Shown: positions 13,134 to 49,509, counted from the first letter of the stretch. The stretch is DNA of 64,000 bases from an uncultured Alphaproteobacteria bacterium (GCA_944391515.1 CALXTW010000002.1:4877-68876), one strand, 5' to 3'. Program-made: numbers and translations. Notes: a model not told the origin generated them from the sequence alone.

Positions 13134-14318
13134 ATGACTACCGCTAAAAACTTGTATTTAACCAAAATTCAGCTCAAAGCCGAGTTGGATAGGTGTTTGA
13201 ATTGCCCAACCAAACCCTGCATGAACGCTTGTCCGGTTAACTGTAGCCCTCAGGAATTTATTTCCCATGCCCAAAAAGGCGAATATGACGAAGCTGTCAA
13301 GACCATTACGCGGAATAACCCCATGGGGCAGACATGCGGACTGATTTGTCCCGATAAATTTTGCATGAAGGCTTGCACGCGGAGTCATATTGACTTTTCG
13401 GTGAATATTCCCAAGGTTCAAGCCACCATATTGGAAAACTTTAGAAAAACCACAGAGGATTATCAAAACACGCACGCCAACGGGTACAAAATTGCCATTA
13501 TCGGTGCCGGACCGGCCGGAATGGCGGCAGCCTCTACCTTGGGTAAACAAGGCTATCAGGTAACCGTCTATGAGGCTTCGGAAGAAATCGGCGGTGCGCT
13601 GAATTTAATTCCCGATGAGCGTTTACCCCACGCCGTGATTGAGAAAGATTGGTCTTTTATTTATAATCCCGACTATATCAAACTCGAGCTAAATGCTAAA
13701 GTGGCAAATCCTGAGGAGTTGTTGACCCAAGGCTTTGACGGCGTGATTGTTTCGACCGGCGAGCCCAATTGCACAGCCTTAAATATAATAGGCGAAGACA
13801 ACAGCATTTCTTATATGAAATATTTGCACAATCCCGAAATTTATAAAACAACGGGCAAAGTAGCAATTATCGGTGGCGGAAATGTTGCGGCTGACTGTGC
13901 GCTAACGGCTGCGGCCAATGGCTCTGAACATGTGGAAATGTTTGTTCGTCGTCGGTTGTCGGATATGCGTATTTCCAAACACGAATATCTGGAGCTGATT
14001 AATCGTCAGGTAAACATTACGGCGCTGACCAGCCCTGAGAGATTCGAAAAGAAAAACGGCAAAATCTCGCTCTTTGTACATAAAAATCAATTTGAGAACG
14101 GAAAACTCCAAGCCTTGCCCAATTCCACCATCGAGCTTCCGGGGTTTGATTTAGTGATTAAAGCTGTCGGCAGTAAGGCCGACCCCAAAATTGATAATCC
14201 GCGCATTATCTATGCCGGTGACTGCAAAACCGGAGGTTCGACCATTGTGGAGGCTTTGTCTTCAGGCAAAACGGCGGCTGAATTGATGATGCATGAATTG
14301 GCTTGCGCCGCAGAATAA
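13134..14318 (+). CDS. PreT/GltD-like Fe-S flavoprotein oxidoreductase
   Basis: RCLNC-x4-C-x3-CP, CGLICP..C..AC, IIGAGPAG, IIGGGNVAAD, YAGD; terminator at 14328-14364. Confidence 0.8.
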   Translation: MTTAKNLYLTKIQLKAELDRCLNCPTKPCMNACPVNCSPQEFISHAQKGEYDEAVKTITRNNPMGQTCGLICPDKFCMKACTRSHIDFSVNIPKVQATILENFRKTTEDYQNTHANGYKIAIIGAGPAGMAAASTLGKQGYQVTVYEASEEIGGALNLIPDERLPHAVIEKDWSFIYNPDYIKLELNAKVANPEELLTQGFDGVIVSTGEPNCTALNIIGEDNSISYMKYLHNPEIYKTTGKVAIIGGGNVAADCALTAAANGSEHVEMFVRRRLSDMRISKHEYLELINRQVNITALTSPERFEKKNGKISLFVHKNQFENGKLQALPNSTIELPGFDLVIKAVGSKADPKIDNPRIIYAGDCKTGGSTIVEALSSGKTAAELMMHELACAAE

Positions 14319-25908: not shown

Positions 25909-27708
25909 ATGAGAAAGCAGCTTGCGATAGGAGTATCGGTGCTTGCGCTTACTGCATTAGGTGGCGTAAGTGAAAGTGATTTTATTTTAATCAATCAACA
26001 AGGTGCAGATTCGCAATACACACACCTCGTAAAAACCAGTCTAAACCAATTTGAGCCTTTGTCGGGGGCAAGTCTTTTACTAGACTTGCCCAATCGTAAT
26101 TCTTTTCAAGCCACGTCTGTTCAATTCATCACCGGTGGAGATAATCTTGATTTCGGAAATATGGATTTTACCGACCCGACGATTGAGCAATGCCAAAGAT
26201 ATGGTTATTCCTTAACCAGTTGTGGAGCTGGTCAGCTTCAAGGTTTGAAATGTCCTTATAATTCAGCTTATTTTGATAGATGTTGCGATGGTCGTTACAA
26301 GTATGACAAAAGTGCTTGCAATTATCCTAATACAGTTAGTAGTGATAGCTGTGGCGGTAAATATATGTGCTATTGTGACAGAAGTTTGTATCCTGAAACA
26401 AAATGTGCCTCTCCGATGGTGGCGGAAAGCGGGGATAGTTGCATCGAAGATGGGGTAACTTATTATGCCCAATGCGTGTGTCCATCATCATACTCACAAA
26501 CCTGTGACGGGTTAAATCAAGAAGGATCGGGAGAGGGATGTACTCAAAACGGCGTAACCAAATATACAAGTTGTCAATGCAAGAGTGGTTATAATATGAC
26601 ATGTTCAGACTTTGGACCAACCAATCCTTCCGATTATTGTTTAATGAATGGAATAAAATATTACAACGACTGTAAAACTTGTGAAAAACAAGAAGATGTT
26701 GATCCTACAAGTTGTTCAAATGGGACAACTTTAGAGGATGATGGATGCGGAGGAACGAGAATAGTCTGTGCCGCATGTTCATCACAATATAAATATGACG
26801 AAAATAACTGTCCGTCATCAAAATTTTTTCATTGTGGAGAAGGTTGTGATTCATTATATGAGGATTGTTATCCAAAATATTCTTTAGATGAAAATGGACA
26901 ATTTAATACTCTTGATTTTTTAGGTGAAAACAGACTACTAAGTGATGTGATTTTTACCAATGATAAATCTTTTTGCCCAAGAGTAAAAGAACATTTTGTT
27001 GATTTATATGATGAAACCCGTAACACAATGTATACTTATAGATTAATTCTAGATGCTAAATATAACATTCAAAATAAAGTTTTAAAACTTTGTGTTGATG
27101 CAGATGATAAATGTCTGTCATTTGTACAAGAAATGATTGAAGCAATATCGGAAACATATAAAGATGGACAAGCAAAAGAACTAAATATAACAAGTGATAT
27201 GGAGTGTGGTAATCTACTTTTTTCAGGGAGTTCTTCTGGTAAAATAACTATCAATGGAAATGGCCATACAGTTTCATTTCGTTATTTAGGAGATCCTATT
27301 ATGGAGGATCTCAATGTAAATAATCTAAATATCGAAATTTTCAGTACAGGCTATTATGCTGCAAATAAAAAATTGGAGTGTTACTCCTCCTCTAAAATGG
27401 ACTATATTAGAAATTGTCATCTTCAAGATACAAATGTAAAGACCTCTGGAGGAATAGACGTAACTGATGTATTTTTGAACACAACAACATCAGGAACGTG
27501 TAATTTTGATCTAAATGGTATAATGTGGGGGGCGCATTATTCTGGAGGAATTCCCTATGGAAAGTTAGATATTACACCTTTGGAAGGACAACTAAACATT
27601 AAAACCATTCGTCCAAGGGATCCCAGTGTCTATCCGGAATACGAAAAGTTTAGAGTAGATCTAAACACAGGTGACGGTGATGTAAATGTAACTTTTTACG
27701 AGTCTTAG
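25909..27708 (+). CDS. Secreted Cys-rich protein with conserved N-terminal half and variable C-terminal half
   Basis: Signal-peptide-like N-terminus MRKQLAIG; many Cys; the first ~260 aa are paralogous to 53828..54751. Confidence 0.8.
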   Translation: MRKQLAIGVSVLALTALGGVSESDFILINQQGADSQYTHLVKTSLNQFEPLSGASLLLDLPNRNSFQATSVQFITGGDNLDFGNMDFTDPTIEQCQRYGYSLTSCGAGQLQGLKCPYNSAYFDRCCDGRYKYDKSACNYPNTVSSDSCGGKYMCYCDRSLYPETKCASPMVAESGDSCIEDGVTYYAQCVCPSSYSQTCDGLNQEGSGEGCTQNGVTKYTSCQCKSGYNMTCSDFGPTNPSDYCLMNGIKYYNDCKTCEKQEDVDPTSCSNGTTLEDDGCGGTRIVCAACSSQYKYDENNCPSSKFFHCGEGCDSLYEDCYPKYSLDENGQFNTLDFLGENRLLSDVIFTNDKSFCPRVKEHFVDLYDETRNTMYTYRLILDAKYNIQNKVLKLCVDADDKCLSFVQEMIEAISETYKDGQAKELNITSDMECGNLLFSGSSSGKITINGNGHTVSFRYLGDPIMEDLNVNNLNIEIFSTGYYAANKKLECYSSSKMDYIRNCHLQDTNVKTSGGIDVTDVFLNTTTSGTCNFDLNGIMWGAHYSGGIPYGKLDITPLEGQLNIKTIRPRDPSVYPEYEKFRVDLNTGDGDVNVTFYES

Positions 27709-27741
27709 CATTTTAAGTCTATACAATCCGGATTAAAAAAT

Positions 27742-27768
27742 AACGGGGTGATTTTTCACCCCGTTTTC
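27742..27768. terminator. Intrinsic terminator between convergent genes
   Basis: AACGGGGTGA-tttt-TCACCCCGTT. Confidence 0.75.
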
Positions 27769-29190
27769 TTATTCAAAGCTAATAGGCAGATAAATTGTAA
27801 AAGTCGTTCCGTTATAAGAAGTAGAGGTAACGGTCAGATTGCCCTTGTGGCGAAGGATAATATGCTTGGCAATAGCCAAACCAAGTCCCGTACCTTTTAT
27901 ATTGAGGTCTTTATGCTCTTGCATACGATAGAAACGTTCCGTTAAGCGTGCTAAGTTTTCGGGAGCAATTTTGGGACCTTTGTTATTAACCGAAATAGCC
28001 AAGGCTTTGCCCTGAGCCACCTTAAAACTTTTTGACGGAGGAATTTGTTCCACCACTTTAGCCTTAATTAATAAATCGCTTTTAGCCACGCCATATTTAA
28101 CGGCATTGTCTGTCAGGTTTTGAATAACTTGTTTAACCTGATGCTCATCAGCTGTAATAATTGGTAAATTATCTTCCAAGAAGGTATGAATTGAAATTTC
28201 TCTGGCTTTGGCTTTTATATCAAGAGCGTGAGCCACTTCTTCAATAATTTTCTTCACATCAACTTTTCCTTCCGGCAAGGTATCTTGGCTCATTTCAATT
28301 TTTGAAAGCGAGAGCAAATTCTCAATCAAAGAGGACATATATTCAGCTTGCTCTTGCATAATTTTCAAAAACTTATCTCTGGCCTCGGCATCATCTTTGG
28401 CGGTTGTTTGTAAGGTTTCAATAAAGCCGGAAATAATTGCTAAAGGAGTTCTAAGCTCGTGACTGGCATTTGCCACAAAGTCTGATTGCATTTTTTCAAT
28501 CTTCATGGCTTTGGTCATATCATAAAGTGAAATCACCGCTACGGCACGCCCTTTGGATTGATAGGGAAGTTGTTTGATATGGGCATAAAGTTTTTGCTCG
28601 ATAGGTTTTTTGATATAAAAAATCAAGTTTTCCGATTCGCTTTCTTTTTTCAGAACTTTTGAAACCGCTTCAATAAAATTATTAGACGAGATGAGCTGTT
28701 CTACATTTTTTGATGTAATGTTTTTGCCAAACAATACGCGAGATGATAAATTTGCCCCGATAATGTTTCCTGATCTGTCAATCATCATAATCGGGTCAGG
28801 TAAGGTGTCCAAAACGGCGGTATCAGAAATAGCTTGAGCCTCCAAATTATCAGTTTTAGCCGCCCAAAAACGATGCATCGAGTTTACGGCTTCAACAATT
28901 TCTTTGGCGTCTTTTTCTGAGACGTCAACTTCATCACGAGGCATTTCACCTTTTGCCACACCTTTAACATAGTTTTTGAGCTGTTGCATTTCAAAGGACA
29001 GCGGAAGCAAGAACACAATATTGAACACAATGATTGTGGCATAAGAGATAATAGCCATTGACGGCGCAAGCATTTTAAGAGCCACCAGCATAATAAATAC
29101 CAAAGCCGGAGGAAATGAGAGCACCAAGACACGGTCGGCAAATTTGTTGTTTTTTTCAAATTGATAAGCAGTAGAACTTTTCTTAAACAT
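27769..29190 (-). CDS. PhoR-like PAS sensor histidine kinase
   Basis: Two TM segments, PAS domain, DFVANASHELRTPL, NLTDNAVKY, RLTERFYR, GTGLGLAI. Confidence 0.85.
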   Translation of the reverse strand: MFKKSSTAYQFEKNNKFADRVLVLSFPPALVFIMLVALKMLAPSMAIISYATIIVFNIVFLLPLSFEMQQLKNYVKGVAKGEMPRDEVDVSEKDAKEIVEAVNSMHRFWAAKTDNLEAQAISDTAVLDTLPDPIMMIDRSGNIIGANLSSRVLFGKNITSKNVEQLISSNNFIEAVSKVLKKESESENLIFYIKKPIEQKLYAHIKQLPYQSKGRAVAVISLYDMTKAMKIEKMQSDFVANASHELRTPLAIISGFIETLQTTAKDDAEARDKFLKIMQEQAEYMSSLIENLLSLSKIEMSQDTLPEGKVDVKKIIEEVAHALDIKAKAREISIHTFLEDNLPIITADEHQVKQVIQNLTDNAVKYGVAKSDLLIKAKVVEQIPPSKSFKVAQGKALAISVNNKGPKIAPENLARLTERFYRMQEHKDLNIKGTGLGLAIAKHIILRHKGNLTVTSTSYNGTTFTIYLPISFE

Positions 29191-37373: not shown

Positions 37374-37841
37374 ATGAACACTTATGCAACAAAACCCTCT
37401 GACATTCAGAGAAAATGGTATGTCGTTGACGCTGAAGGTGTAGTATTAGGTCGTCTTTCTGCAGAGATTGCAAAGATTCTCCGCGGTAAACACAAACCTT
37501 GCTATGTACCTAACTTGGACTGCGGCGACTATGTAATTGTCATCAATGCTGACAAAGTAAAATTGACAGGTCGTAAATTGACCCACAAGAAATACTTCAA
37601 GCACACTGGTTGGATTGGCGGTATTAAAGAAACCACTCCTGCAAAAATTTTGGCAGGTCGTTTCCCTGAAAGAGTTATTGAAAAAGCAGTTGAACGCATG
37701 ATTTCCCGTAATCCTCTGGGCCGTCAACAAATGACCAAATTGAAAGTATATGCAGGTTCAAATCATCCGCACACAGCTCAAAACCCAGAAGTTTTGGACA
37801 TCGCAGCAATGAACCCGAAAAATAAAAGGAGCGCATTATAA
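37374..37841 (+). CDS. rplM: 50S ribosomal protein L13
   Basis: [40 protein letters not shown]. Confidence 0.99.
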
Positions 37842-38311
37842 TGGCTGAAACCATCGATTCTTTGAAAGAAATTAAATCTTCAGCTGTTGCTTCTGCTGAA
37901 GTTCGTAAACCAAAACGCGACAGACAAGGTCGTTCTTATGCAACCGGTAAAAGAAAAGACGCTGTTGCCCGTGTATGGATTAAACCTGGTAAAGGTAACA
38001 TCACCATTAACGAAAAATCAATTGATCAATACTTTGCTCGTCCGGTATTGAAAATGATTATCAATCAACCGTTTGAAGTTGCAAATCGCGAAAACGAGTT
38101 TGATGTAATCTGCACTGTAAAAGGTGGTGGTTTGTCAGGACAAGCTGGTGCTATCAAACATGGTATTGCCAAAGCTTTGAATGAATATGAGCCAGAATTA
38201 AGAACAGTCTTGAAGAAAGCTGGCTTCTTAACTCGTGATGACCGTGTTGTTGAACGTAAGAAATTCGGTCGTGCGAAAGCTCGTCGTTCTTACCAATTCT
38301 CTAAACGTTAA
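37841..38311 (+). CDS. rpsI: 30S ribosomal protein S9
   Basis: [40 protein letters not shown]-terminus. Confidence 0.99.
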
Positions 38312-38313
38312 TC
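38286..38313 (+). repeat. attL core
   Basis: GTTCTTACCAATTCTCTAAACGTTAATC, covering the last rpsI codons and stop; identical to 49482-49509. Confidence 0.95.
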
Positions 38314-38340
38314 TGACAGAAGAGAAAATGTTGTATTTTC

Positions 38341-38371
38341 AATGGGTTGTGAAAATTCACAACCCATTTTT
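38341..38371 (+). terminator. Element-supplied terminator for rplM-rpsI
   Basis: AATGGGTTGTGAA-aa-TTCACAACCCATT followed by T run. Confidence 0.7.
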
Positions 38372-38374
38372 CAT

Positions 38375-38396
38375 ATTCACATAATCTTCACATAAG
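38375..38396 (+). repeat. Putative integrase arm-type sites (TTCACA pair), left end
   Basis: ATTCACATAATCTTCACATAAG, 20/22 identical to 49419-49440; two more TTCACA copies at about 38429-38445. Confidence 0.7.
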
Positions 38397-38458
38397 CCTT
38401 GACTTTAGTAACTTACTAATTTACCTTTTTCACAAGTCATTCACAGTTTTGAGGAAAA

Positions 38459-39880
38459 ATGAGCAACAACTTCTATACTGAAACTTATTCTTACAGAGAG
38501 GGAAGGATACTTATTTATAAGAGGTCTAATTCCAAAAATTATCAATGTAGATTAAGGATAAAAGGGATTAAAGGTTATACAATCAAATCTTGTGATACAA
38601 CAAATTTGGGAGAGGCTCTGAATTTTGCAGAAGATTTATATGATAGCCTAAGATACAAGAAATTAAATAATCTTCCTCTCAAAACTAAAACATTTAAGCA
38701 AATTTTTGAAGAATGGTTTAAGAAAGCTGATAAATCTGAGTATAGGCAATCTTTTTACCAAAGTAGGGCAAAATTATATTTCTTCAAATATTTTGGAGAT
38801 TATAAAATTGAGGAAATTACTGAAAGCATAATTGAAGATTATTGGGATTGGAGAAAAAACTATTATAAAGACAATCCTGATGAAAAGAAGGGTAGAGCAG
38901 CAGAAAATCCATCTCCACAATCATTAAAAATGGAAAAAACAGCTATTCAAGAAGTTTTTGAGTATGCTTATAGAAGAGGATATATTAGGGCTGTTCCAGC
39001 CATTAGATTTAAGCCAAGAGCTCAAACAGAAAATAGAGATACCTTTACCAAAAGTGAATATACACAACTTATTCTTGCTCTGCAAGATTGGTATGGGGAA
39101 TCTCCAAAATCAACAGATACCTACCAAAGAAAAATGATTTACAATTTGGTGGTTTTTCTTGCTAATTCAGGAATCAGACCTAATGAAGTTTATAAAATAA
39201 AATGGAAACATTTGGAAGTTTATGAACAAAAGGGAGTTAAAATATTATATGTAACAATTCCAGAAGAGACAAAAACAGGAGTGAGAATAGTAGTTTGTTT
39301 ACCTGAGGCCTATTCTTGTTATCAAAATATTAGAGATTTTTCAAAATATATAGGAGAAAATGACTACTTTTTTACTAATTTTGATGGAACCCAAATGAGA
39401 AATTGGAGCAAAACATATACAAATTTTCTAAAAAAAAGAAAATTTTATTTGAGTTCAGATAATAAACCAAGACCTCCATATTCATTAAGACACTATTATG
39501 CAACACAAAGATTGTTGGAGGGTGTGAGTGTCTATGACTTAGCAAAAAATATGGGGACATCTGTAAAACAAATAGAAAAACATTATGGACATATTTTGTC
39601 TACCCAGAAGACAGAAGAATTGGTTCAAGGAGCTAGAAAATCAGAGTATCAGTGGAATGAAGAGTATAGAGCAATATTTGGAAGGGATGCTCCTTTCTTT
39701 ATTGGTATGAATACAAAAAGATACACCTTTTCCCCAAAAAAAGATTTTTCAGAACAAATAAAAGAGATGTACGAAGATATTGAAAGAAGAGTAAAGCCTT
39801 TTGAAACAGAAGAGGATATAAGGAAATATATGGATTTTATGCATAGATATCTTACTTCATCTGATAATAAAAAGAAGTAG
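38459..39880 (+). CDS. Tyrosine recombinase / integrase
   Basis: SGIRPNE (R), TKTG (K), YSLRHYYA (xxRH), MGTSVKQIEKHY (Y); N-terminal arm-binding-like domain; adjacent to attL. Confidence 0.93.
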   Translation: MSNNFYTETYSYREGRILIYKRSNSKNYQCRLRIKGIKGYTIKSCDTTNLGEALNFAEDLYDSLRYKKLNNLPLKTKTFKQIFEEWFKKADKSEYRQSFYQSRAKLYFFKYFGDYKIEEITESIIEDYWDWRKNYYKDNPDEKKGRAAENPSPQSLKMEKTAIQEVFEYAYRRGYIRAVPAIRFKPRAQTENRDTFTKSEYTQLILALQDWYGESPKSTDTYQRKMIYNLVVFLANSGIRPNEVYKIKWKHLEVYEQKGVKILYVTIPEETKTGVRIVVCLPEAYSCYQNIRDFSKYIGENDYFFTNFDGTQMRNWSKTYTNFLKKRKFYLSSDNKPRPPYSLRHYYATQRLLEGVSVYDLAKNMGTSVKQIEKHYGHILSTQKTEELVQGARKSEYQWNEEYRAIFGRDAPFFIGMNTKRYTFSPKKDFSEQIKEMYEDIERRVKPFETEEDIRKYMDFMHRYLTSSDNKKK

Positions 39881-40117
39881 ATAATTAAAAAAATGCAAAT
39901 ATAGCATAATAATGTAAATTTTATAAGTTGAAAATTTTTTCATTTTATTTTTGATTTTGGGAAGAGTTTTATTGTATGATTTTGATAAATAAATTAAACA
40001 AAATGCAATAGACTTTTAGATATTACATTTTTTTTCAACAAATTCAATAATATATATGTTGCTTTAGAGATAATGCAGCATTCAAATATTATTATCTAAT
40101 ATAATTAAGGATAAACA

Positions 40118-40792
40118 ATGATAATTAACAATTTAGATGAGTTAAAACAAACATTTATTGAAAAAAATCTTATAATTAACAATTTAAATCAAACATCTGA
40201 ACAGACAAAATTAAATGAATTAAAAGTTCAACAACAAGATTTAAAAAATCAGACTATAAAAATATATAATGAAATAAAACATTTGAAAAAATTGGAATTA
40301 AATAATTGTCATACTAACAAATCTGATAATTATTATAAAAATTACAATTTAGAAAGAATGAGAGATGGTCTTATTAAGACTTTTACTCAAGATAGTAACA
40401 AATATAATTTAGCCTTAACCTTAAATTTTAATCCTAAAAATTTTAAAGATGATTTTAGAAAATCACCTGCAGAAAATAAATTAAAAGAATTTTGGAAACT
40501 GTATTGCCAATATAATTTAGGTGGAAATGCATCAAAATACAGGAAGATGAAATATGTTGCTATTATTGAACATCAGTTAAGTAATATCCATATACATCTT
40601 GCAATTAGTCATATTAATCAAAATATAAATGATGAATTTATATATGATGAAGAGAATGTCATTTCCATATTATGGAAAACAGTCATAAATAGTGGAACTG
40701 TCTTTCTTGAAAAACTATATGACAAAAATTGGTTTAATTACATATTCAAATCAGAAAACTTCTATGAAAATATGTTGATATCTGATTCTTGA
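40118..40792 (+). CDS. Probable HUH rolling-circle replication initiator
   Basis: Motif I LTLNF, motif II E-x5-HIHLAI, motif III YIFK, in Rep order. Confidence 0.6.
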   Translation: MIINNLDELKQTFIEKNLIINNLNQTSEQTKLNELKVQQQDLKNQTIKIYNEIKHLKKLELNNCHTNKSDNYYKNYNLERMRDGLIKTFTQDSNKYNLALTLNFNPKNFKDDFRKSPAENKLKEFWKLYCQYNLGGNASKYRKMKYVAIIEHQLSNIHIHLAISHINQNINDEFIYDEENVISILWKTVINSGTVFLEKLYDKNWFNYIFKSENFYENMLISDS

Positions 40793-40825
40793 TAAATAAT
40801 TATATCAATAAAACAAGGAGTTAAA

Positions 40826-41092
40826 ATGAATGATGAATTACAATATTTGTATCAGATTGCAAACAGTTTAAAATCAGAAAAGCTAATAAAAAGTTACAGA
40901 AACTTCAGTAAAAATTATTTGAACAAATGTCCTCCATACTTAAGTGTTTTAAAGTATTTGAATAAAAAACCAAGTTTAAGAGCCTTATCTTTTTTGCTAT
41001 ATAAATTGAATGTGCAAAAAATTTATCCTGAAATTCAAACTCAATTACACCTGTTAATTAAAAATAAGTTATGTCAAAAGGACTTGATATGA
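40826..41092 (+). CDS. Small basic protein, reminiscent of the DUF6626 family
   Basis: AAGGAG SD; pattern S.R.FS..YL.K...YLSVL.....PS..AL. Confidence 0.55.
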   Translation: MNDELQYLYQIANSLKSEKLIKSYRNFSKNYLNKCPPYLSVLKYLNKKPSLRALSFLLYKLNVQKIYPEIQTQLHLLIKNKLCQKDLI

Positions 41093-41757
41093 TGGAAGAT
41101 GTTAATTTTGAACAGCTAATAAGTAAGATTGATTGTATATTAAATTCACCCAAACCAATTCCAAACTTTATTAAAAAGGATAAAGAATTAGCTCAAATGT
41201 TGGAAGATTTGCAAGAAATTTCAGAATATGAGACTCTCAATCAATTTGAGGAGTTATTTGATAAAGAGCCATTTTTGATGCAATTTTTGATAGGTGCTGA
41301 TTTTACAAAACTTTTGAAAATTATAGATAGAACTACTATGAAATATGAGCATCTGGATGACTATACAGCTCTTCATATGATAGTGGTTAATCCTTGTATT
41401 GCTAATGTTGAAAAAACAGTAGTTATTGATAGAATTTTGGAAATGGGTTGCAATATTAATCAAACATCTGCAAAAGGTGAGACAGCTTTGTTTTTAGCTG
41501 TCAAAAGAAACAATAGAAAAATGATTGAATATTTGCTTGGAAAAGGGGCTAATCCTAATGTTTCTAATAATTTGGGAATAACTCCAATGATGGTGGCAGC
41601 ATTTAACTCACAGCTCTATAATATGGCTATTCTCAAATATTTTAATGCTCAAATGGGTGCAACCTGTACTTACTATCAATTTGATGTTTTTGATATTGCA
41701 GAAATAACAAAAATCTCAAATACAATAGAAGTCCTGAGGGATTTGAGAAGAACTTAA
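41071..41757 (+). CDS. Ankyrin-repeat protein
   Basis: TALHM, GCNIN, GETALFLAV, LLGKGANPN, GITPMMVAA. Confidence 0.85.
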   Translation: MSKGLDMMEDVNFEQLISKIDCILNSPKPIPNFIKKDKELAQMLEDLQEISEYETLNQFEELFDKEPFLMQFLIGADFTKLLKIIDRTTMKYEHLDDYTALHMIVVNPCIANVEKTVVIDRILEMGCNINQTSAKGETALFLAVKRNNRKMIEYLLGKGANPNVSNNLGITPMMVAAFNSQLYNMAILKYFNAQMGATCTYYQFDVFDIAEITKISNTIEVLRDLRRT

Positions 41758-41766
41758 TACTAAATA

Positions 41767-41793
41767 AAAAAGCCAGAAATAAATCTGGCTTTT
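41767..41793. terminator. Bidirectional terminator
   Basis: AAAAGCCAGA-aataaa-TCTGGCTTTT between convergent genes. Confidence 0.75.
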
Positions 41794-41796
41794 AGG

Positions 41797-42387
41797 TTAA
41801 ATAATAAATTCTGTTACATATCTATGAAGAGTAGTCCAAGTACACCCCATTAATCTTGCAATTTCAGCTTTTGAGACTTTTTTATCCAATAGTTCTTTAA
41901 TTTTATTATGTTTTTTCTTCAATTTTTTATAAGAAAACCCATAAGGTCTACCTAAATGTTTCCCCTCATTTTTTAATCTTTTTAATGATTCTTTTGTTCT
42001 CTGTGAAATTAGTTGTCTTTCAATTTCACTGGCAAGGGAAAAGGCAAATGCTAATACCTTACTCTGAATATCAGCTCCTAAATGATAGTTTTCTTTAACT
42101 GTTATAATTTCACACTCTTTTTCAAGACAAGTTTGCAAAATTCCCATAACTTCTAACATATTTCTACCAAGTCTTGAGATTTCAGTTGTAATTACTATAT
42201 CTCCTTTTTTGAGCTTATTTAACAACTTTCCCAATTTTCTTTGAGCTAAAGGTTTTCTTGATGAAATAATTTCCTCAACAAATTCATTTATGCATAAATT
42301 ATTTTTCTCTGAGAAATTTTTAAGTTCAAACTTTTGATTTTCACAATTTTGCAAATCAGTGCTAACTCTTATATAACCATATATCAT
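41797..42387 (-). CDS. Serine recombinase resembling the Mpi DNA-invertase family
   Basis: YGYIRVST catalytic Ser, EISRLGRN, KENYHLGADIQSKVLAFAFSLASEIERQLISQRTKE, C-terminal HTH. Confidence 0.88.
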   Translation of the reverse strand: MIYGYIRVSTDLQNCENQKFELKNFSEKNNLCINEFVEEIISSRKPLAQRKLGKLLNKLKKGDIVITTEISRLGRNMLEVMGILQTCLEKECEIITVKENYHLGADIQSKVLAFAFSLASEIERQLISQRTKESLKRLKNEGKHLGRPYGFSYKKLKKKHNKIKELLDKKVSKAEIARLMGCTWTTLHRYVTEFII

Positions 42388-42628
42388 ATTTAATCCTTTG
42401 TTATTACATTGATATTTATCAAAAATAACTATACAAAGGTTATAAAAATAATAGCTAAACTAAATGTCCATCTAGTTTAGCTATTACAGATAATGGTATT
42501 ATAAAACAATAAAAAATATATTAAAGCAAGTTATTTCCTTGTTTTTCATATAATTAAGGTGTTTTAAGAGATGCTTCCTCATTTATCATAATTTAGCTCT
42601 CCATAAATGGACATTTGTGGAGAGCATT

Positions 42629-43585
42629 ATGGCAACAGATTCTAATAATAAATTACATAAAGCTATGAAAAATAAAAATGATGAGTTTTATACTCAATTA
42701 GCTGATATAGAGAATGAATTAAGACATTATAGAGAATATTTTAAAGATAAAGTAGTTTTTTGTAATTGTGATGACCCAAGAGTAAGTAATTTTTTTCACT
42801 ATTTTTCTTACAACTTTGAATATCTTGGATTGAAAAAACTAATCACCACTTGTTATAAAAATCAAAATATGAACTTGTTTTCTCAAAATAAAAATGAAAG
42901 GGCTATTTATCTTGAATATACAGGTGTTAAAGGTAACAATAAAATCCCAGATATGAATGAGATTGGAATAAAAGCTCTTAATGGTGATGGAGATTTCAGA
43001 AGTGAAGAGTGTATAGAGTTATTAAAGCAAGCAGACATTGTTGTAACCAACCCACCTTTTAGCCTATTTAGAGAATATGTATCACAACTTATAGATTATG
43101 ATAAGAAATTTATAATAGTTGGAGCCAAAACTGCAATTGGATATAAAGAAATATTTAAACTTATAAAAGAAAATAAAATATGGTTGGGCTATACTCCAAA
43201 ATTAAAAACATTCAGAGTACCAGATGATTATGAAGGAAACTTAATGGTCATTGAAAATGGTGTAAAATATGTAAAAAATGTTGGAAATGTTGGATGGTTT
43301 ACAAATCTTGATGTTAAATACAGACATAATGATTTAATTCTATATAAAAAATATAATGAAAAAGAATATCCTAAATATGACAATTATGATGCTATAGAAG
43401 TATCTAGGACTTCAGATATTCCATTAGATTATGATGGTATTATGGGTGTACCAATCACATTTTTAGAAAAATACAATCCAAATCAGTTTGAAATTATAAG
43501 ATTTAGAAAAGGCAATGATAATAAAGATTTGTCTATTAATGGAAAATATTTATTTTCAAGAATCCTAATAAGGAGGAAAAAGTAA
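42629..43585 (+). CDS. EcoRI-family adenine DNA methyltransferase
   Basis: DEFYT, KVVFCNCDDP, GDGDFRS.EC, IVVTNPPFSLFREY, WFTNLD, MGVPITF. Confidence 0.9.
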   Translation: MATDSNNKLHKAMKNKNDEFYTQLADIENELRHYREYFKDKVVFCNCDDPRVSNFFHYFSYNFEYLGLKKLITTCYKNQNMNLFSQNKNERAIYLEYTGVKGNNKIPDMNEIGIKALNGDGDFRSEECIELLKQADIVVTNPPFSLFREYVSQLIDYDKKFIIVGAKTAIGYKEIFKLIKENKIWLGYTPKLKTFRVPDDYEGNLMVIENGVKYVKNVGNVGWFTNLDVKYRHNDLILYKKYNEKEYPKYDNYDAIEVSRTSDIPLDYDGIMGVPITFLEKYNPNQFEIIRFRKGNDNKDLSINGKYLFSRILIRRKK

Positions 43586-44682
43586 TGGAAATTAAGTTAA
43601 ATGAAATTCTGATAAGAGATTTATACAATGGCTATATTCATAATGAAGATGATAATAGTATAATTGGATATTATGGAAAATTAAATATAAGACCTAAATA
43701 CCAAAGAGAATTTATTTACTCAGGTAAACAAAGAGAAGAGGTAATAAAAAGCATTCAAAAGAGTTTTCCTCTTAATGTTATGTATTGGTGTAAAAATGAG
43801 GGTGATAGTTTTGAATTATTAGATGGTCAACAGAGAACTATTAGTATTTGTGATTATGTAGATAATGTTTATTCAATTGATGGTAAATATTTTCAAAATC
43901 TAACTAATACAGAACAAGAACAAATAATGAACTACAAATTAATGGTTTACATTTGTGAGGGTAATGATAAAGAAAAATTAGATTGGTTCAAAATTATTAA
44001 TATTGCAGGTGAAAAATTAACAGAACAAGAATTAAGAAATGCTATTTATACAGGTGAATGGCTAGAAAGTGCTAAACAATATTTCAGTAAAAATGGATGT
44101 ATAGCATATAAAAAAGGTAGTGACTATTTAACAGGGTCCTCTATTAGGCAAGAATATTTAGAAACAACCCTTTTTTGGATAATTAATAGAGATAATCTAA
44201 AAAGTATAGAAGAATATATGGCTCTTCACCAACATAATCATAATGCTATAGAGCTATGGAACTATTTTAGTTCTGTGATTGATTGGGTAAAAGCTATTTT
44301 TCCAAAATATAGAAAAGAAATGAAAGGTATAAGTTGGGGAATATATTATAATCAATATAAAGATACAGATTATAACCCAAAAGAATTAGAACAAAAATTT
44401 CAAGATTTATGTGCAGATGATGATGTTACCAATATTAAAGGAATCTATGAATATTTGTTAGATAACAATGAAAAACATTTACATTTGAGAGCATTTACAG
44501 ACAAACAAAAAAGAAAACAATATGAAAAACAACAGGGGGTTTGTAAAAAATGCAAAAAACATTTTAGTTTTGATGAAATGGAAGGAGACCATATAATTCC
44601 TTGGAGCCAAGGAGGTCATACAACAGAAGATAATCTACAAATGCTCTGTAAAGATTGCAATAGAAGAAAAAGTGATATTTAA
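43585..44682 (+). CDS. DUF262 (GmrS/ParB-like) plus HNH endonuclease
   Basis: PKYQR, LLDGQQR, FKIIN.AG.KL..QELRN; C-terminal CxxC...DHIIP...GG.T..DNLQMLCKDCN; start overlaps the MTase stop. Confidence 0.88.
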   Translation: MEIKLNEILIRDLYNGYIHNEDDNSIIGYYGKLNIRPKYQREFIYSGKQREEVIKSIQKSFPLNVMYWCKNEGDSFELLDGQQRTISICDYVDNVYSIDGKYFQNLTNTEQEQIMNYKLMVYICEGNDKEKLDWFKIINIAGEKLTEQELRNAIYTGEWLESAKQYFSKNGCIAYKKGSDYLTGSSIRQEYLETTLFWIINRDNLKSIEEYMALHQHNHNAIELWNYFSSVIDWVKAIFPKYRKEMKGISWGIYYNQYKDTDYNPKELEQKFQDLCADDDVTNIKGIYEYLLDNNEKHLHLRAFTDKQKRKQYEKQQGVCKKCKKHFSFDEMEGDHIIPWSQGGHTTEDNLQMLCKDCNRRKSDI

Positions 44683-44739
44683 TACTCTCTAAAGATACCT
44701 GATATATTTTATATAAAGATATGAATGGGAGTATATGAT

Positions 44740-46146
44740 ATGCAAATTAGCAAGATTATAATTCAAAATTTTAGAGGTATTGAAAGTGAAAATATTGAGT
44801 TAAAAAATTTAAACATCATTATTGGTAATAATGGAACATCTAAAACAACTATATTAGAAGCTTTGCATTATGCTCTGTCTCCTGCATATGTCCAAAACCA
44901 CATAAGCTACAATGATTTCTATAATAATACAAACTCACCTATATTAATTGAAGTATATTTTAGTGAAATAATAAATATTGATGTGCAATTTGGATACCAA
45001 ACTAAACAAATTCCATTCAAGAAAATTTGGCTTACTATAAGAAAAAGGGAAAACCAAATTGGGCTAAAAAAAGCATTTAATAGTGGATTTGTAATAACAC
45101 ACTGTTTAGTACCTGACTATGAAAATTTAAAAGAAGGAAAGGGATGGAATGTAAGAGATACCTCAGGTGCTTTGCTAACAGTTACAACTTTACAAGCCAA
45201 AGAGGCTATTAATTCTTTACCTATTAAAGGATTTTATTTTAATAAAGATAGAGAAAAGCAATTAAATAAAGGATTTAACTCATCTATTTCTGCTGTCTTT
45301 GAGGATTTTAATTGGAGATTTCTGTTAAATACACAAAAAGAACCAAATAATTTTTTTGATGATAAAAAGAAATTAGAACAGTATGTTTTGGATAATATTG
45401 CTGGAAATATATGGGATAAAAGTATTGGAACAATTAACAATAAAATCCAAACTTATTTCTCTTTAAAACCATTTAATATTTCTTTAATTGATTGTAATAA
45501 TCCATTTAACTCAGCCTTTTTAGCTAATCAAGAATATAATCAAGACCTACCAATATCAAAATTAGGTTCTGGAATTGAAATGATTATTTCTTTAATATTT
45601 TTAGAAACTATTGCCTCTTTATCTAAAAATAAGCTCATAATAATTGTTGATGAACCTGAAGTCCACTTACATCCAACACTACAAAAACAACTATTAAAAT
45701 ATTTACAGAAGCTTGCAAATGATAGTGATGTCCAGATACTTTTTTCAACACATTCTCCATATATGTTTAAAGATTGTGTTGAAAATGCTACAACTTCTTT
45801 AATAAGTAGAGAAAAAAATTACCAAGAAAGTATTTTCCCTTGGGGAAAAACTTGGGGTGAATTGAATTACTTTTCATATAATATGGCAACAGTAGAATTT
45901 TTTAATGAATTATTTGGATTTATACAAAATAACAGGAACCTGACTGAAACAGATGAATTTTTAAATCAATGTGGAATAGAAAGAACAAAAATATGGAAAA
46001 GAACACAAACACAAGAATTCAATTGTACCTTACCCATTTATGTTAGAAATTCAATACATCACCCAGAAAACACCTTGAATAAAAAATATACAGATGATGA
46101 ATTAAGTAATTGTATTAAAATACTTGTTGATATAGTAAAAAAATAA
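44740..46146 (+). CDS. ABC-type ATPase with putative C-terminal HEPN domain
   Basis: NFRGI, variant Walker A GNNGTSKT, LGSG signature, DEPEVHLHP, STHSP; C-terminal RNSIHH (Rx4H). Confidence 0.75.
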   Translation: MQISKIIIQNFRGIESENIELKNLNIIIGNNGTSKTTILEALHYALSPAYVQNHISYNDFYNNTNSPILIEVYFSEIINIDVQFGYQTKQIPFKKIWLTIRKRENQIGLKKAFNSGFVITHCLVPDYENLKEGKGWNVRDTSGALLTVTTLQAKEAINSLPIKGFYFNKDREKQLNKGFNSSISAVFEDFNWRFLLNTQKEPNNFFDDKKKLEQYVLDNIAGNIWDKSIGTINNKIQTYFSLKPFNISLIDCNNPFNSAFLANQEYNQDLPISKLGSGIEMIISLIFLETIASLSKNKLIIIVDEPEVHLHPTLQKQLLKYLQKLANDSDVQILFSTHSPYMFKDCVENATTSLISREKNYQESIFPWGKTWGELNYFSYNMATVEFFNELFGFIQNNRNLTETDEFLNQCGIERTKIWKRTQTQEFNCTLPIYVRNSIHHPENTLNKKYTDDELSNCIKILVDIVKK

Positions 46147-46154
46147 TCTTTTCT

Positions 46155-46286
46155 AATGTTAAATTTTGTAAATCCAGAGTAGAGGCTGATTTAACAATTC
46201 CAAAACTGTAAAGTTGAAATCAAAATACTTGACAATTTTACAGTTTTTATTTATTGTAAAGTTATGTTTAAGATTTTAACCTTACA
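46155..46286. promoter_or_regulatory. Putative res site (three inverted-repeat subsites)
   Basis: TGTTAAAT...ATTTAACA (46157-46196), AAAACTGTAAA...TTTACAGTTTT (46202-46247), TGTAAAGTTA...TAACCTTACA (46255-46286), directly upstream of the resolvase. Confidence 0.65.
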
Positions 46287-46295
46287 GGTGGCAAT

Positions 46296-46847
46296 ATGAT
46301 TTTCAATTACAAGAGAGTTTCAACAGTAGACCAAAATACAGAAAGACAGTTATTAAATATCAAATGTGATAGAGAATTTGAGGACAAATTATCAGGCAAG
46401 GATAGAAATAGGCCTCAACTGGAATTATTGCTCTCCATAATTAGAGAAGGAGACATCATCAATGTGCATTCTATGGATAGATTAGCTAGGAATACCAGAG
46501 ATTTGTTGAATTTGGTAGAGGAAATCACATCCCAAGGAGTCACTATAAAATTCCATAAGGAAAATCTGACTTTTGAGGCAGGTAAAAATGACCCATACCA
46601 AAAATTGATGATGACAATGCTTGGAGCAGTTGCTGAACTTGAGAGAAGTTTAATCCTTGAAAGACAAAGAGAAGGAATTGCTTTGGCTAAAATGAAAGGC
46701 AAATATAAGGGAGGAAAGCATAAATTATCTCCTCAAGAGGTTGCTGAGCTGAAAGAATTAGCTAACTCTCAAAAAGTTTCTTTATCTGAATTAGCTAGGA
46801 AATATCAAATTTCAAGACCTACTTTGTATGCATATCTAAAAAATTAA
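46296..46847 (+). CDS. Serine recombinase (resolvase)
   Basis: YKRVSTVDQN..RQ, RPQL, SMDRLARN, ERQREGIA.AK..G, C-terminal HTH. Confidence 0.92.
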   Translation: MIFNYKRVSTVDQNTERQLLNIKCDREFEDKLSGKDRNRPQLELLLSIIREGDIINVHSMDRLARNTRDLLNLVEEITSQGVTIKFHKENLTFEAGKNDPYQKLMMTMLGAVAELERSLILERQREGIALAKMKGKYKGGKHKLSPQEVAELKELANSQKVSLSELARKYQISRPTLYAYLKN

Positions 46848-47144
46848 ACTCCAACATCCTATCAATGTTGGAGATATTAATGGATTATTATATACTTATT
46901 GAAACTCATTCACATATATTTATCAAAAAGCCTAGTTTTAATAAATTTTTTTCAAGAAAATAAAAAAAGAGGGCTCCTTTTTAAAATTTTGCATGATACA
47001 TTTTTAAAGGATGCTCAAAAACTGTATGAATAGATAGGGTGGAGTTGGTATTTTTACCTCTCCACCTTATCTTTTATCTTATCTTGATTTAAATAAAAAT
47101 ATAAATTAGCATCAAAAAAGAAGTAAAACATATAGGTAGAAATA

Positions 47145-49361
47145 ATGAGTATAAAACTTATAAAAAAGATAAAAAATATTTTTAAAATAAAAAAGAAAGC
47201 TACACCCAAAAAGAAAGTTATGCCATCAGAAAAGAAAGTTATATCAAACAATATAGCTGATTTTGAAATAGACAGTCCTATAACATTACCTGAGGAAGAT
47301 ATATTTGGGTATAATAAATTTGCAATGAATTTTGCAGAGCTTTTGCATAATAGGATTTCATCAGAAGGATTTGTTACAGCTATAAATGCTCCTTGGGGAT
47401 ATGGAAAAACCTCTTGCATCAACCTAATAAAACATAAATTGAAAAGCTACAATGATGTGGAAATCATAAATTTTAATCCTTGGTTTATCCCCATAAAACA
47501 AAACACTTTAATTACACAATTTTTTATGGCATTAAAACCATACATACAAAAACTTTTTGCATTGAAAAGTTGGTCAAAAAAAGAAAAAGAAGGATTCTTT
47601 AGGGTATTAAGTGGATTTAGTATCAGTTGTGGAATTATAGAATATAATTGCAAAGATTTATCAGATGCATTTTTACAGCCTCAAACTATTTATGATGAAA
47701 AAAAAGAAATAGAAGACTTCTTAAATACAAAAAAAGAAAAAATTATAGTCTTTATAGATGATATTGATAGGCTTTCCAAAGAAGAGATTATTCAAATTTT
47801 TAGGCTTATAAAATCTGTTGCAAACTTTAAAAATATTACCTATGTCCTTTCTTTTGATTTGGATGTTGTATCTACAATTTTAGAAACAGAACAGTTAATC
47901 AATGGAAGAAAATATTTAGAAAAAATAATTCAATTGCAGCTTAATTTACCTCAACCCAGCAATAATGCCATTGAAAATTATCTTTTGAAAAAATTAAAAT
48001 TAATTTCTTCAGATGCTAACTTATCAGAAACAGATAAGCAAGTTTGGGTGGCAATATATTCTAAGTTAATACAATCAAATCTTTTAAGTATTAGAGATGT
48101 AAATAGATTATATAATGCTATTTTAACAACATACACTATGATAAAAGATGATGTAAATTTTATAGATTTTGTGGTTATAGAATATTTAAGATTATTTCAC
48201 AATAACATATGGAAAATCATAAAATATAATCAGTATCTTTTTTCATCTAATTTTTTACATAAAGCTCAAAATAAAGATGAATTAAAAAACTTAATTGATG
48301 AACTACCTCAAGAAGAGCAAAAAATTGCTCAAGTGATAATTACAATTCTTTTTCCTAATATAGAACAATATATCCCTCATTCTGGAATTTATAAGGTTAT
48401 TAATATTTCTAATCCTCAACAACTTTTACAGCTTTGTGAAAAAGAAAAAAGAATTTGTTCTCCATATAGAATAAATTATTATTTTACTATGAATGTTGGT
48501 GAAGATAGTATCTCAGATGTTGAGATACAACATATTCTCAATAATATAGCAACAGCAGAAGATTTGACTAATATATTTCAAAAATATTACCAAATAAAAT
48601 TATCAACAGGAAAAACAATGTTGCTTTTTTTATTAGAAAAATTAAGATTCTATGCAGATGAAATTAAACAAAAAAAATTAACAGAAATTTTTTATAAATC
48701 AATATTTGCTTCTGCATTAAGATATAACAATGAAGATGATATCTTATTTGATATATTTACCCCTACTATTAGCACAAAATTTGAATATTTGTTAATTGCT
48801 CTTTATTTAAAAAATTCTCCAAAAGAAAATTTTCAGCTACTCTCAAAAGTCATAGAAAATCCAGAACATATTGTATTTTCTTGTCAAGAACTTAGCATCA
48901 TAGGACAAAATTTTGGATATTTTACTTCATCATCAAGAAAAGATGAAACATACTTAAAAAAACAAAATTATTTAGATTTAGTAGAAAAATTAATAGAAAT
49001 TATTGAAATAAATTTTAGAAATATAAATAAAATGGCAGACAAAAGAGAGGTAATAAGGTTTATAAAGGAATTTGATAAACTAAAAGCCAACAATTTATTG
49101 TATGAGACAACATATTCTGACAAAGATTTTCTTAATTTTTTAAAAACTTTATATAAAGTATGTTATACATCCATCAATAATGGAACTTCTAAGAAAGAAA
49201 AACACATATATGATACAGATATATCATACTGGTTTGATTTTGAAAAAACAAAAACAAGGTTAATTTCTATCACTACAAACAATCAGGATTTAAGCAAAGC
49301 AGCTTTAGAAATATTATCAAATATTAAAATAGATGATTTTAATGAAAAGATATCAGTTTAA
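47145..49361 (+). CDS. KAP-family P-loop NTPase
   Basis: DIFG...FA, APWGYGKTS, FNPW, VFIDDIDRL, YLEKIIQ...LP, RDVNRLYN. Confidence 0.88.
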   Translation: MSIKLIKKIKNIFKIKKKATPKKKVMPSEKKVISNNIADFEIDSPITLPEEDIFGYNKFAMNFAELLHNRISSEGFVTAINAPWGYGKTSCINLIKHKLKSYNDVEIINFNPWFIPIKQNTLITQFFMALKPYIQKLFALKSWSKKEKEGFFRVLSGFSISCGIIEYNCKDLSDAFLQPQTIYDEKKEIEDFLNTKKEKIIVFIDDIDRLSKEEIIQIFRLIKSVANFKNITYVLSFDLDVVSTILETEQLINGRKYLEKIIQLQLNLPQPSNNAIENYLLKKLKLISSDANLSETDKQVWVAIYSKLIQSNLLSIRDVNRLYNAILTTYTMIKDDVNFIDFVVIEYLRLFHNNIWKIIKYNQYLFSSNFLHKAQNKDELKNLIDELPQEEQKIAQVIITILFPNIEQYIPHSGIYKVINISNPQQLLQLCEKEKRICSPYRINYYFTMNVGEDSISDVEIQHILNNIATAEDLTNIFQKYYQIKLSTGKTMLLFLLEKLRFYADEIKQKKLTEIFYKSIFASALRYNNEDDILFDIFTPTISTKFEYLLIALYLKNSPKENFQLLSKVIENPEHIVFSCQELSIIGQNFGYFTSSSRKDETYLKKQNYLDLVEKLIEIIEINFRNINKMADKREVIRFIKEFDKLKANNLLYETTYSDKDFLNFLKTLYKVCYTSINNGTSKKEKHIYDTDISYWFDFEKTKTRLISITTNNQDLSKAALEILSNIKIDDFNEKISV

Positions 49362-49418
49362 TAAAGTTATATTAGAGAGAAAATAGATTCTTTAACCAAT
49401 TTTTTAACTCAAAATACA

Positions 49419-49440
49419 ATTCACACAATATTCACATAAG
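49419..49440 (+). repeat. Putative integrase arm-type sites, right end
   Basis: ATTCACACAATATTCACATAAG, near-identical to 38375-38396. Confidence 0.7.
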
Positions 49441-49481
49441 AATTTTTGATTATGTAATAGATTGAAAAATAATAATAAAAA

Positions 49482-49509
49482 GTTCTTACCAATTCTCTAA
49501 ACGTTAATC
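49482..49509 (+). repeat. attR core
   Basis: Identical 28-bp copy of the rpsI 3' end. Confidence 0.95.

Follow-up and report, generated by a model that had tools for sequence, protein, structure and literature searches.

The dinucleotide CG is almost completely missing from an 11,168-bp mobile element, referred to below as E1, that occupies positions 38314-49481 of the 64,000-nucleotide stretch of DNA analyzed here (the window; GCA_944391515.1, CALXTW010000002.1:4877-68876, from an uncultured Alphaproteobacteria bacterium). E1 contains a single CG, at 39772, where its base composition (26.3% GC) predicts 191.1, an observed/expected ratio (o/e) of 0.005; for a Poisson variable with mean 191, the probability of one or none is ~1e-80. 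Its host genome (G000; 1.67 Mb in 44 contigs, 39% GC) holds two further CG-free tracts, E2 (C13:1797-11064) and E3 (C37:2918-6806), and the total now stands at 13 tracts and 107,672 bp in 10 species-level genomes of four genera, with 5 CG in place of the 2117 expected. We lean, if only slightly, toward attributing the purge to selection at the DNA level by a barrier that reads CG whatever its flanks.

Low GC content does not explain the loss. GC dinucleotides number 217 in E1 (o/e 1.14). The CG o/e is 0.91 for the window overall, 0.39-0.86 per kb in the AT-rich stretch at 7-11 kb of the window, 0.84 over 30 kb of other AT-rich 1-kb windows of G000 and 0.99 genome-wide. Scanned in 2-kb windows, it falls below 0.35 in just three tracts of G000, where the next longest CG-free gap measures 387 bp; there is no CG-poor region beyond the three tracts and thus no CG-free prophage in that genome. 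The CG-free tract of E1 begins and ends at a 28-bp att repeat, a duplicate of the rpsI 3' end, each copy of which has one CG (at 38306 and 49502). Its ten open reading frames (ORFs) specify Arg 126 times with AGA or AGG, never with CGN, and contain no NCG codon; the four flanking host ORFs use 52 CGN and 20 AGR codons for Arg. The only internal CG of E1 is also present in the copy of the element in genome G184. An initial annotation of the window, made by reading the sequence, had noted most of this: one CG (39772-39773, in the integrase tail) and no GATC from 38314 to 49481, plentiful GC dinucleotides, Arg codons confined to AGA and AGG, CG returning at the att cores, a rough expectation of 150-200 CG, and an AT-rich control region that retains its CG. 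Counting bears out each of these points, and since the computed o/e is nothing like that of other AT-rich regions, the observation itself holds.

The loss extends to DNA that is not translated. In six elements taken together, the 10.1 kb outside ORFs contains 1 CG versus 172 expected, host intergenic DNA 274 versus 295; 6.2 kb of the former, with 114 CG expected, consists of element ends and divergent promoter regions. The island of genome G124 (locus L109, G124:C11) provides a particular instance. It interrupts a host tRNA-Arg(CCU) gene at the anticodon stem-loop and is flanked by 20-bp repeats at 2972-2991 and 16463-16482, with the 5' half of the gene left of the island and the 3' half right of it; it also carries a full-length tRNA-Arg(CCU) gene of its own (14142-14218; 61 bits against the Rfam tRNA model) that is free of CG. 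Each of the 39 tRNA genes of G000, by comparison, has CG, with a mean of 5.9. In the element's tRNA the stems are kept by paired changes, and the T-loop reads TTCAA where many host tRNAs have TTCGA. This tRNA may stand in for the broken host gene and serve the AGG codons of the island; at all events, the CG constraint has been able to reshape a structural RNA gene.

The CG-free state is also held as the elements diverge, and it spares their proteins. E4 and E5, two CG-free elements, differ by 756 substitutions; the same spectrum, re-dealt, makes ~49 new CG, and one is present. The HsdR, HsdM and AAA_13 proteins of E4 are 68-79% identical in amino acid sequence to the copies at loci L021 and L048. 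The hsdR genes of those two copies (HsdR being 74% identical) have 99 and 100 CG, and the HsdM and AAA_13 genes 45-49 and 15; all three E4 genes have none. At 40 aligned sites of a resolvase gene at which relatives have CG, the CG-free alleles have AG 14-15 times (Arg AGR codons), TG 7-9, CA 5-8 and CT 5-6 times. AG and CT are states that deamination cannot reach; this is therefore a synonymous pattern that deamination alone does not produce. The purge is synonymous at the level of proteins and the constraint is on DNA rather than on codons.

CG-containing sister elements of like architecture, in the same family of hosts, provide an internal control. Eight such loci (66 kb, 33% GC; near-duplicates L016 and L020 and short loci set aside) have an overall CG o/e of 0.76. 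They strongly avoid most CG-containing four-base palindromes (o/e 0.09 for TCGA, 0.12 for GCGC, 0.17 for CCGG, 0.55 for ACGT), as they do GATC (0.06) and CATG (0.05), but every non-palindromic NCGN context is at 0.95-1.68 of expectation. Ordinary restriction pressure therefore leaves most CG in place. The CG-free lineage has lost every NCGN context and therefore goes beyond ordinary restriction-site avoidance. (The 11 CG left over in a depleted tract at locus L045 are all non-palindromic, a number too small to interpret.) Palindromes without CG are avoided as well: five of the elements have 2 GATC of 147 expected, 8 CATG of 199 and 4 GGCC of 44, and for E1 alone the counts are 0 of ~28, 1 of 34 and 2 of 6. 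The initial annotation, which made no mention of CATG and GGCC, was right that E1 lacks GATC, and the trait is not special to the element: G000 has 942 GATC versus 5912 expected (o/e 0.16). GATC loss is therefore only partly an island trait; its absence from E1 intensifies what is found throughout the host genome. G000 also avoids CTAG (0.19), GTAC (0.35), TCGA (0.41) and ACGT (0.45), and over-uses CCGG (2.35). Elsewhere in the window, positions 26001-28000 hold 7 of its 26 GATC, with a GC-dinucleotide o/e of 0.81-0.82 versus 1.2-1.7 in other parts, and may be foreign DNA of a different signature.

The genes and borders of E1 are as follows.

37841..38311, + strand: host rpsI, an ORF whose 3' end is the attachment site and is overlapped by the 28-bp att repeat.
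38286..38313, + strand: attL, 28-bp direct repeat, with one CG.
38459..39880, + strand: tyrosine integrase, 473 aa (Pfam Phage_integrase, E 1.1e-10; PHROG integrase, E 1.6e-40), containing the only CG of E1.
40118..40792, + strand: Rep-A, a putative HUH-type replication initiator, 224 aa (motif, weak profile and fold matches).
40826..41092, + strand: DUF6626 protein, 88 aa, a core protein (Pfam, E 2.1e-11), found in eight CG-free elements.
41071..41757, + strand: ankyrin-repeat protein, 228 aa, a core protein (Pfam Ank_2, E 5.7e-19).
41797..42387, - strand: serine resolvase/invertase A, 196 aa (Pfam Resolvase, E 8.1e-32; PHROG DNA invertase).
42617..43585, + strand: EcoRI-family N6-adenine methyltransferase, cargo (Pfam, E 3.4e-132; PADLOC MTase_II).
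43585..44682, + strand: DUF262(GmrSD_N)-HNH nuclease, the likely type II partner of the methyltransferase (PADLOC REase_II, E 1.8e-129).
44725..46146, + strand: AAA_15 ATPase of AriA/GajA/OLD type, defense cargo (Pfam AAA_15, E 1.2e-36; PADLOC AriA, E 2.8e-38).
46296..46847, + strand: serine resolvase/invertase B, 183 aa (Pfam Resolvase, E 4.9e-35).
47145..49361, + strand: KAP-family P-loop NTPase, PifA-like, defense cargo (Pfam KAP_NTPase, E 2.9e-45; PADLOC PifA, E 8.8e-85).
49482..49509, + strand: attR, 28-bp direct repeat identical to attL, with one CG.

E1 is a complete integrative island that is probably still mobile. No capsid, packaging or helper-interaction gene was recognized in it; for ten core proteins the PHROG comparison gave integrase, invertase and unknown-function matches only. 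Three further genera or species have the integrase at rpsI, with 95-99% amino acid identity. The ankyrin protein has 44 homologues in the loci that were fetched, CG-containing relatives included, and resolvase B recurs at 92-96% amino acid identity in seven other loci, of which six are CG-free and the seventh, L045, is strongly depleted of CG. The assignment of Rep-A is tentative: five sequences share invariant H158 and H160 and a conserved Tyr208-x-x-Lys211; PF23343 matches the E2 copy only (E 2.4e-5, 25 bits, under the 27.8-bit cut-off); and the best Foldseek rows for its model are HUH nucleases (parvovirus NS1, adeno-associated virus Rep, IS608 TnpA, SIRV1 ORF119) but weak, with E 0.011-0.08 and TM-scores of 0.2-0.36. 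Rep-A is carried by E1, E2, E4 and E5 only; the remaining CG-free loci that were searched, in 6 of the 10 genomes, lack it. The type of Rep was considered as a determinant of the CG-free state and is ruled out, Rep-A being present in only four CG-free elements.

The 13 tracts, a lower bound, come from searches with the Rep alignment and E1 DNA of 283 genomes, of which 151 gave some match; 30 returned loci and 8 extended regions were inspected. According to their record titles, the hosts are metagenome-assembled genomes of uncultured gut Alphaproteobacteria of one family. Genomes G115 and G113 are the same as G061 and G062, respectively, with identical contig numbers and coordinates. Their tracts measure 14.3 kb with 1 CG (G115) and 14.9 kb with none (G113); that of G118 is at least 13.9 kb with 2 CG, that of G124 13.5 kb with none, and partial CG-free tracts lie at contig ends in G184, G154, G030, G114 and G138. 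The islands (9-15 kb, 25-32% GC versus 39% for the host) have a site-specific recombinase at one border and sit at rpsI or tRNA genes. At rpsI, in E1, G184, G154, G030 and G138, the recombinase is a tyrosine integrase; E2 and G118 use one of DUF6538 type at a tRNA gene, E4 has a plain tyrosine integrase at tRNA-Gly, G124 one that is P4-like, and E5, which is bounded by 17-bp repeats, a large serine recombinase. The tracts of E2, E4 and G118 stop at the tRNA gene, and direct repeats lie at both ends of E2 and E4.

The family core consists of the DUF6626 protein, the ankyrin protein and the two invertase-like resolvases, which bracket the cargo. E2 has two modules in common with E1 (87% nucleotide identity) and another integrase, another cargo and another site, a tRNA-Gln gene. 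The cargo is a type II methylase-nuclease pair, an AriA/GajA-like ATPase and a PifA-like KAP NTPase in E1; a type IIG enzyme in E2; type I restriction-modification with PDC-S01 in E4 and E5; type III or type III-like in E3 and G118, the latter adding a STAND NTPase; and type ISP in G124 and at loci L043 and L045, G124 adding Fic. Collecting relatives integrated at rpsI, as the initial annotation had proposed, yields CG-free tracts at that site in G184, G154, G030 and G138, and the CG-free elements found elsewhere carry differing cargo.

Outside the family of hosts, DUF6626 was found in 5 of 300 Alphaproteobacteria, and not one of its six loci there is CG-free. A scan of metagenomes with the Rep alignment returned 32 loci, all with a distant type of Rep; none is fully CG-free, and two have CG-free or CG-poor cargo. 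Six of these loci have a source in the record title, in each case human gut. E1 itself is listed in contigs of 20 sequencing records from 10 studies, labeled mostly chicken or bird gut and also gut, synthetic or plain metagenome; no RNA record is among them. The contrast between chicken and bird labels and human-gut loci without CG-free islands is a lead to a habitat and only that.

The elements move, and they recombine with CG-containing DNA. The integrase region of E1 is 96-98% identical in nucleotide sequence in G184, G154 and G030, but the rplM-rpsI genes beside those copies are only 80-84% identical to those of G000 (rplM-rpsI homologues adjoin the E1-like elements in these three genomes and in G138); the host flanks of the G061 and G062 elements are 68-85% identical to G000. 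By these comparisons the elements are moving between genera of one family of gut alphaproteobacteria. At locus L002 (G000:C37, 2948-7793), E3 takes in a type III res gene but, of the adjoining mod gene, just the 3' part; the 5' part of mod and the surrounding ankyrin/resolvase backbone have normal CG; a recombination junction therefore lies inside the mod gene. The type ISP gene of L043 (12472-17361) is CG-free in its nuclease-helicase part and near its 3' end and has ~30 CG in its methylase/specificity part; against L045 (12430-17304) it is 90-95% identical in the former and 71-80% in the latter part, a comparison that shows swapping of specificity modules, with the swapped-in part of L043 carrying CG. 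L045 combines a CG-bearing core with a cargo half that has 11 CG versus 170 expected. CG-free and CG-containing DNA recombine, yet full elements remain CG-free. In the tree of resolvase A proteins, well-supported branches require CG-free alleles in at least two positions among CG-bearing ones, which means either that recombination has spread the CG-free state or that it arose or disappeared repeatedly. (The ankyrin tree groups eight E1-like copies together, with G138 and G124 apart on long branches.) CG-free and CG-bearing homologues are 72-79% identical in nucleotide sequence, so that synonymous sites are too diverged for individual CG losses to be polarized on a tree.

The loss of CG is bounded by att sites, covers non-ORF DNA, goes together with the loss of palindromes, is neutral for proteins and is held against mutation and recombination; we therefore take it to reflect selection that acts on the DNA duplex. 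Two points are inferred here: that the driver is selection and not mutation, and that one CG-reading agent exists. As we see it, the element family is under very strong selection to lack restriction targets, and one sub-pool has gone on to remove CG in every context by synonymous recoding, non-coding changes and paired changes in tRNA, with purifying selection on the DNA itself keeping CG out since. The agent would most likely be a barrier met during transfer or episomal life; candidates are nucleases, either of restriction type and present in some recipients or supplied by a helper element, and modification-dependent systems that act after CG has been modified. To such an agent a CG-null island would be invisible, as it would be, at no cost in protein, to every restriction enzyme with CG in its site. 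More tentatively, and as a proposition that we would not rate above a minority chance, the bacterial family, or else a phage or other element preying on it, may have a DNA-targeting activity that takes bare CG, modified or not, as non-self. If so, the islands would be the trace of a prokaryotic immune specificity for a dinucleotide that has not been described before, and natural probes for finding it.

A number of observations weigh against a CG-reading barrier. G000 itself holds the CG-bearing sister backbone around E3, whose resolvase gene alone has 25 CG; G000 is therefore no absolute barrier to CG-bearing kin. E1 tolerates its one internal CG and would carry that of the att core when excised, so the cost per CG must be finite, and a single CG is not lethal. 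We know of no restriction enzyme that reads only CG. A methylase that could mark CG has not turned up either. Carriers G000, G118, G184, G154, G030, G114, G115 and G113 were searched for C5 methylases with PF00145: none scores above the Pfam cut-off in G030, G114 (81% complete), G115 and G113, and there are one match each in G000, G118 and G154 and two in G184; no link between C5 methylases and carriage of CG-free islands was seen. Four of the five enzymes (one from G184) were compared with structures in the PDB: HhaI or HaeIII is best for those of G184, G154 and G118, the G000 enzyme matches these weakly, and the CG-specific M.MpeI (4dkj) is far lower or unlisted for all four. CG-only specificity is recognized in none of these methylases of the host pool. 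Finally, two CRISPR spacers of G115, from a system described below, match a CG-rich element in G156 and G132; invaders of G115 are not generally CG-free.

The C5 methylase of G000 is atypical. It is 515 aa long, encoded on a 2.8-kb contig (C43, locus L023; 190-2735) next to a 316-aa protein without a Pfam match, and the two may form an uncharacterized restriction-modification pair. Mobile relatives of E1 beyond the family were likewise sought. Three scans of viral contigs found no relative of Rep, the ankyrin protein or the integrase, a search of plasmid proteins with Rep gave no match, and a phage collection matches E1 only in its methylase and nuclease genes (66-74%). The CG-free phage, plasmid or donor genome and the CpG methyltransferase that the initial annotation had suggested looking for did not emerge from the viral contigs, the plasmid search, the host or the carriers searched. 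Of its three interpretations, restriction evasion is supported as a general frame; a CpG-methylating donor and self-protection from the element's own nuclease are not supported.

What other explanations come to mind? The principal one does without any one CG-reading agent: across a highly varied range of hosts, each CG lies in, or one mutation from, some CG-containing restriction site (TCGA, ACGT, CCGG, GCGC, CGCG, six-base sites, asymmetric type I, IIS and III sites), and ordinary systems add up. The family does avoid CG palindromes, and GATC and CATG besides; HhaI- and HaeIII-like methylases are present in carrier genomes; CG can be removed without cost to proteins, and 5 of the 16 palindromic four-base words disappear once a sequence has no CG; small replicons can become target-free with few mutations, according to the treatment of that point in PMC10359461. 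Nevertheless, sister elements under like pressure hold non-palindromic CG at or above expectation, and although about three-quarters of CG by context lies outside four-base palindromes, 5 of 2117 are left. Palindrome avoidance thus falls short of explaining the islands, and with the sister-element control weakening it, we regard this main rival as unlikely. Less likely again is CG-specific hypermutation, in which methylated or deaminated CG, for example at a single-stranded rolling-circle stage, decays by mutation far more quickly than it is formed and selection only repairs damaged codons. TG and CA are indeed raised (o/e 1.16-1.28 versus 1.05-1.07 in host DNA), all three CG sites of the host tRNA-Arg(CCU) of G124 are TG or CA in the element's copy, and four elements have an HUH-like Rep. 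Yet residual CG, at ~0.2% of expectation, is far under the level in Mycoplasma penetrans, as given for that genome in PMC11282364. The carrier genomes searched yielded no CG methylase, the other CG-free loci lack Rep-A, and at the 40 resolvase sites the AG and CT alleles, which are not products of deamination, stand against a combined 14-15 for TG and CA. The rate ratio required exceeds any that we know of. A mutational origin in a CpG-methylating donor, the first interpretation of the initial annotation, is not supported for similar reasons, and also because host genome and flanks have normal CG and the att sites and core genes are native to the family. Import from a donor already free of CG would suit the greater AT-richness of the islands relative to their hosts, but CG-containing sisters are similarly AT-rich and share core genes, att sites and hosts, and CG-free alleles of resolvase A lie at two or more places among CG-containing ones. 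Nor does protection from the island's own DUF262-HNH nuclease, the third interpretation, accord with the distribution of that gene: it is the partner of an EcoRI-like methylase; none was found in the four other CG-free elements scanned (E2, E4, G118 and G124; E5 was covered by two genes only); and the pair is widespread, occurring also on Firmicute plasmids, with 24 CG versus 39 expected in the Macrococcoides copy. Import and own-nuclease protection together we consider very improbable; a nuclease of a helper or host is among the candidates for the barrier that we favor.

Selection might, alternatively, act on RNA, if transcripts had to survive a CG-cutting ribonuclease (a toxin or phage enzyme). 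CG being self-complementary, its loss from transcripts would clear both strands of DNA, and the element's tRNA gene is CG-free too; ACA-less messages that resist MazF are a precedent. Against this stand the near-absence of CG from non-ORF DNA, element ends and divergent promoter regions included, and the co-avoidance of GATC, CATG and GGCC, whose palindromic form is the mark of readers of double-stranded DNA, and we give selection on RNA very little credence. Most improbable of all is evasion of a type II CRISPR-Cas (clustered regularly interspaced short palindromic repeats and associated proteins) system with CG in its protospacer-adjacent motif (PAM), for which a CG-free island would offer no protospacer. 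A type II system, with Cas1, a 1170-aa Cas9 and 18 repeats of 36 nt, is found at L072 (G061:C3, 9713-15767), and its repeat type matches 55 of the 283 family genomes, carriers G115, G113, G030 and G184 included. Cas1 itself was found in 1 of 5 genomes tested, and G000, scored 100% complete, is without it. None of the 17 spacers of G115 matches the islands; they are CG-rich (27 CG versus 18.7 expected), and around one protospacer, perfect in G132 and with one mismatch in G156, the 12 nt to each side are free of CG. A CG-containing PAM is therefore unlikely. The flanks common to both protospacers read ~NAATGG on one side. There is also a repeat-like signal on contig C8 of G000.

Site avoidance is the oldest known anti-restriction strategy and has been described word by word for targets of 4 to 6 bp. 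Whole-dinucleotide loss implies something else, either a selective agent with 2-bp specificity, of which we know none in prokaryotes, or an additive effect of many restriction systems that present models fail to predict. The consequences extend to the host community: the islands spread restriction-modification and other defense genes across genera, and their stealth bears on the flow of defense genes in the gut.

How do the islands compare with what has been described? Shaw, Rocha and MacLean (2023; PMC10359461) report avoidance of restriction sites, that is, palindromes, that is stronger in small mobile replicons, and in the portion of their study that bears on four-base palindromes, these are not extra-avoided in plasmid genes relative to core genes. 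The islands resemble the phages and plasmids of that account in having short palindromes depleted with proteins unchanged and in the weaker version of the trait in the host (GATC). In contrast, they drop a dinucleotide in all 16 contexts to 0.2% of expectation over 108 kb, and even ordinary members of the island family are at 0.05-0.17 for five four-base words, unlike the plasmids as that study describes them. Under-representation of CpG has been tied to a CG methylase in Mycoplasma penetrans (PMC11282364). The depletion reported in connection with M.MpeI, like that with M.SssI of Spiroplasma, is bacterial and CG-specific, as it is here, but genome-wide and partial, with the CG methylase present; here it is confined to islands and near total, the host genome is otherwise normal, and the carriers searched yielded no methylase of that kind.

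Integrative islands and phage satellites, at P4-like and PICI-like (phage-inducible chromosomal island) hotspots, carry variable defense cargo. The CG-free islands are like them in being small and in having an integrase placed at a tRNA gene or at the end of a conserved gene, together with a constant core and exchangeable cargo of restriction-modification, Abi-like and NTPase defense genes; they are unlike them in that no capsid, packaging or helper genes are recognized, no relative is found in the viral contigs scanned, and the core is made up of DUF6626, ankyrin and a pair of invertase-type resolvases, to which some members add an HUH-like Rep. Plasmids and transgenes engineered to be CpG-free, so as to avoid sensing by vertebrate TLR9 or methylation, demonstrate that CG can be removed synonymously and genes kept functional. 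Unlike these, the islands occur naturally, are inserted at att sites, vary in their cargo and come from assemblies of several studies. The top-ranking results of our literature search describe no naturally CG-free bacterial mobile element, which is not proof of absence, and the initial annotation's view of E1 as a candidate for something undescribed stands. Palindrome avoidance, methylase-linked CG depletion and defense islands are all known; what the islands add to them is that mobile DNA of bacteria has, in nature, shed a dinucleotide almost entirely, which none of those top-ranking results describes.

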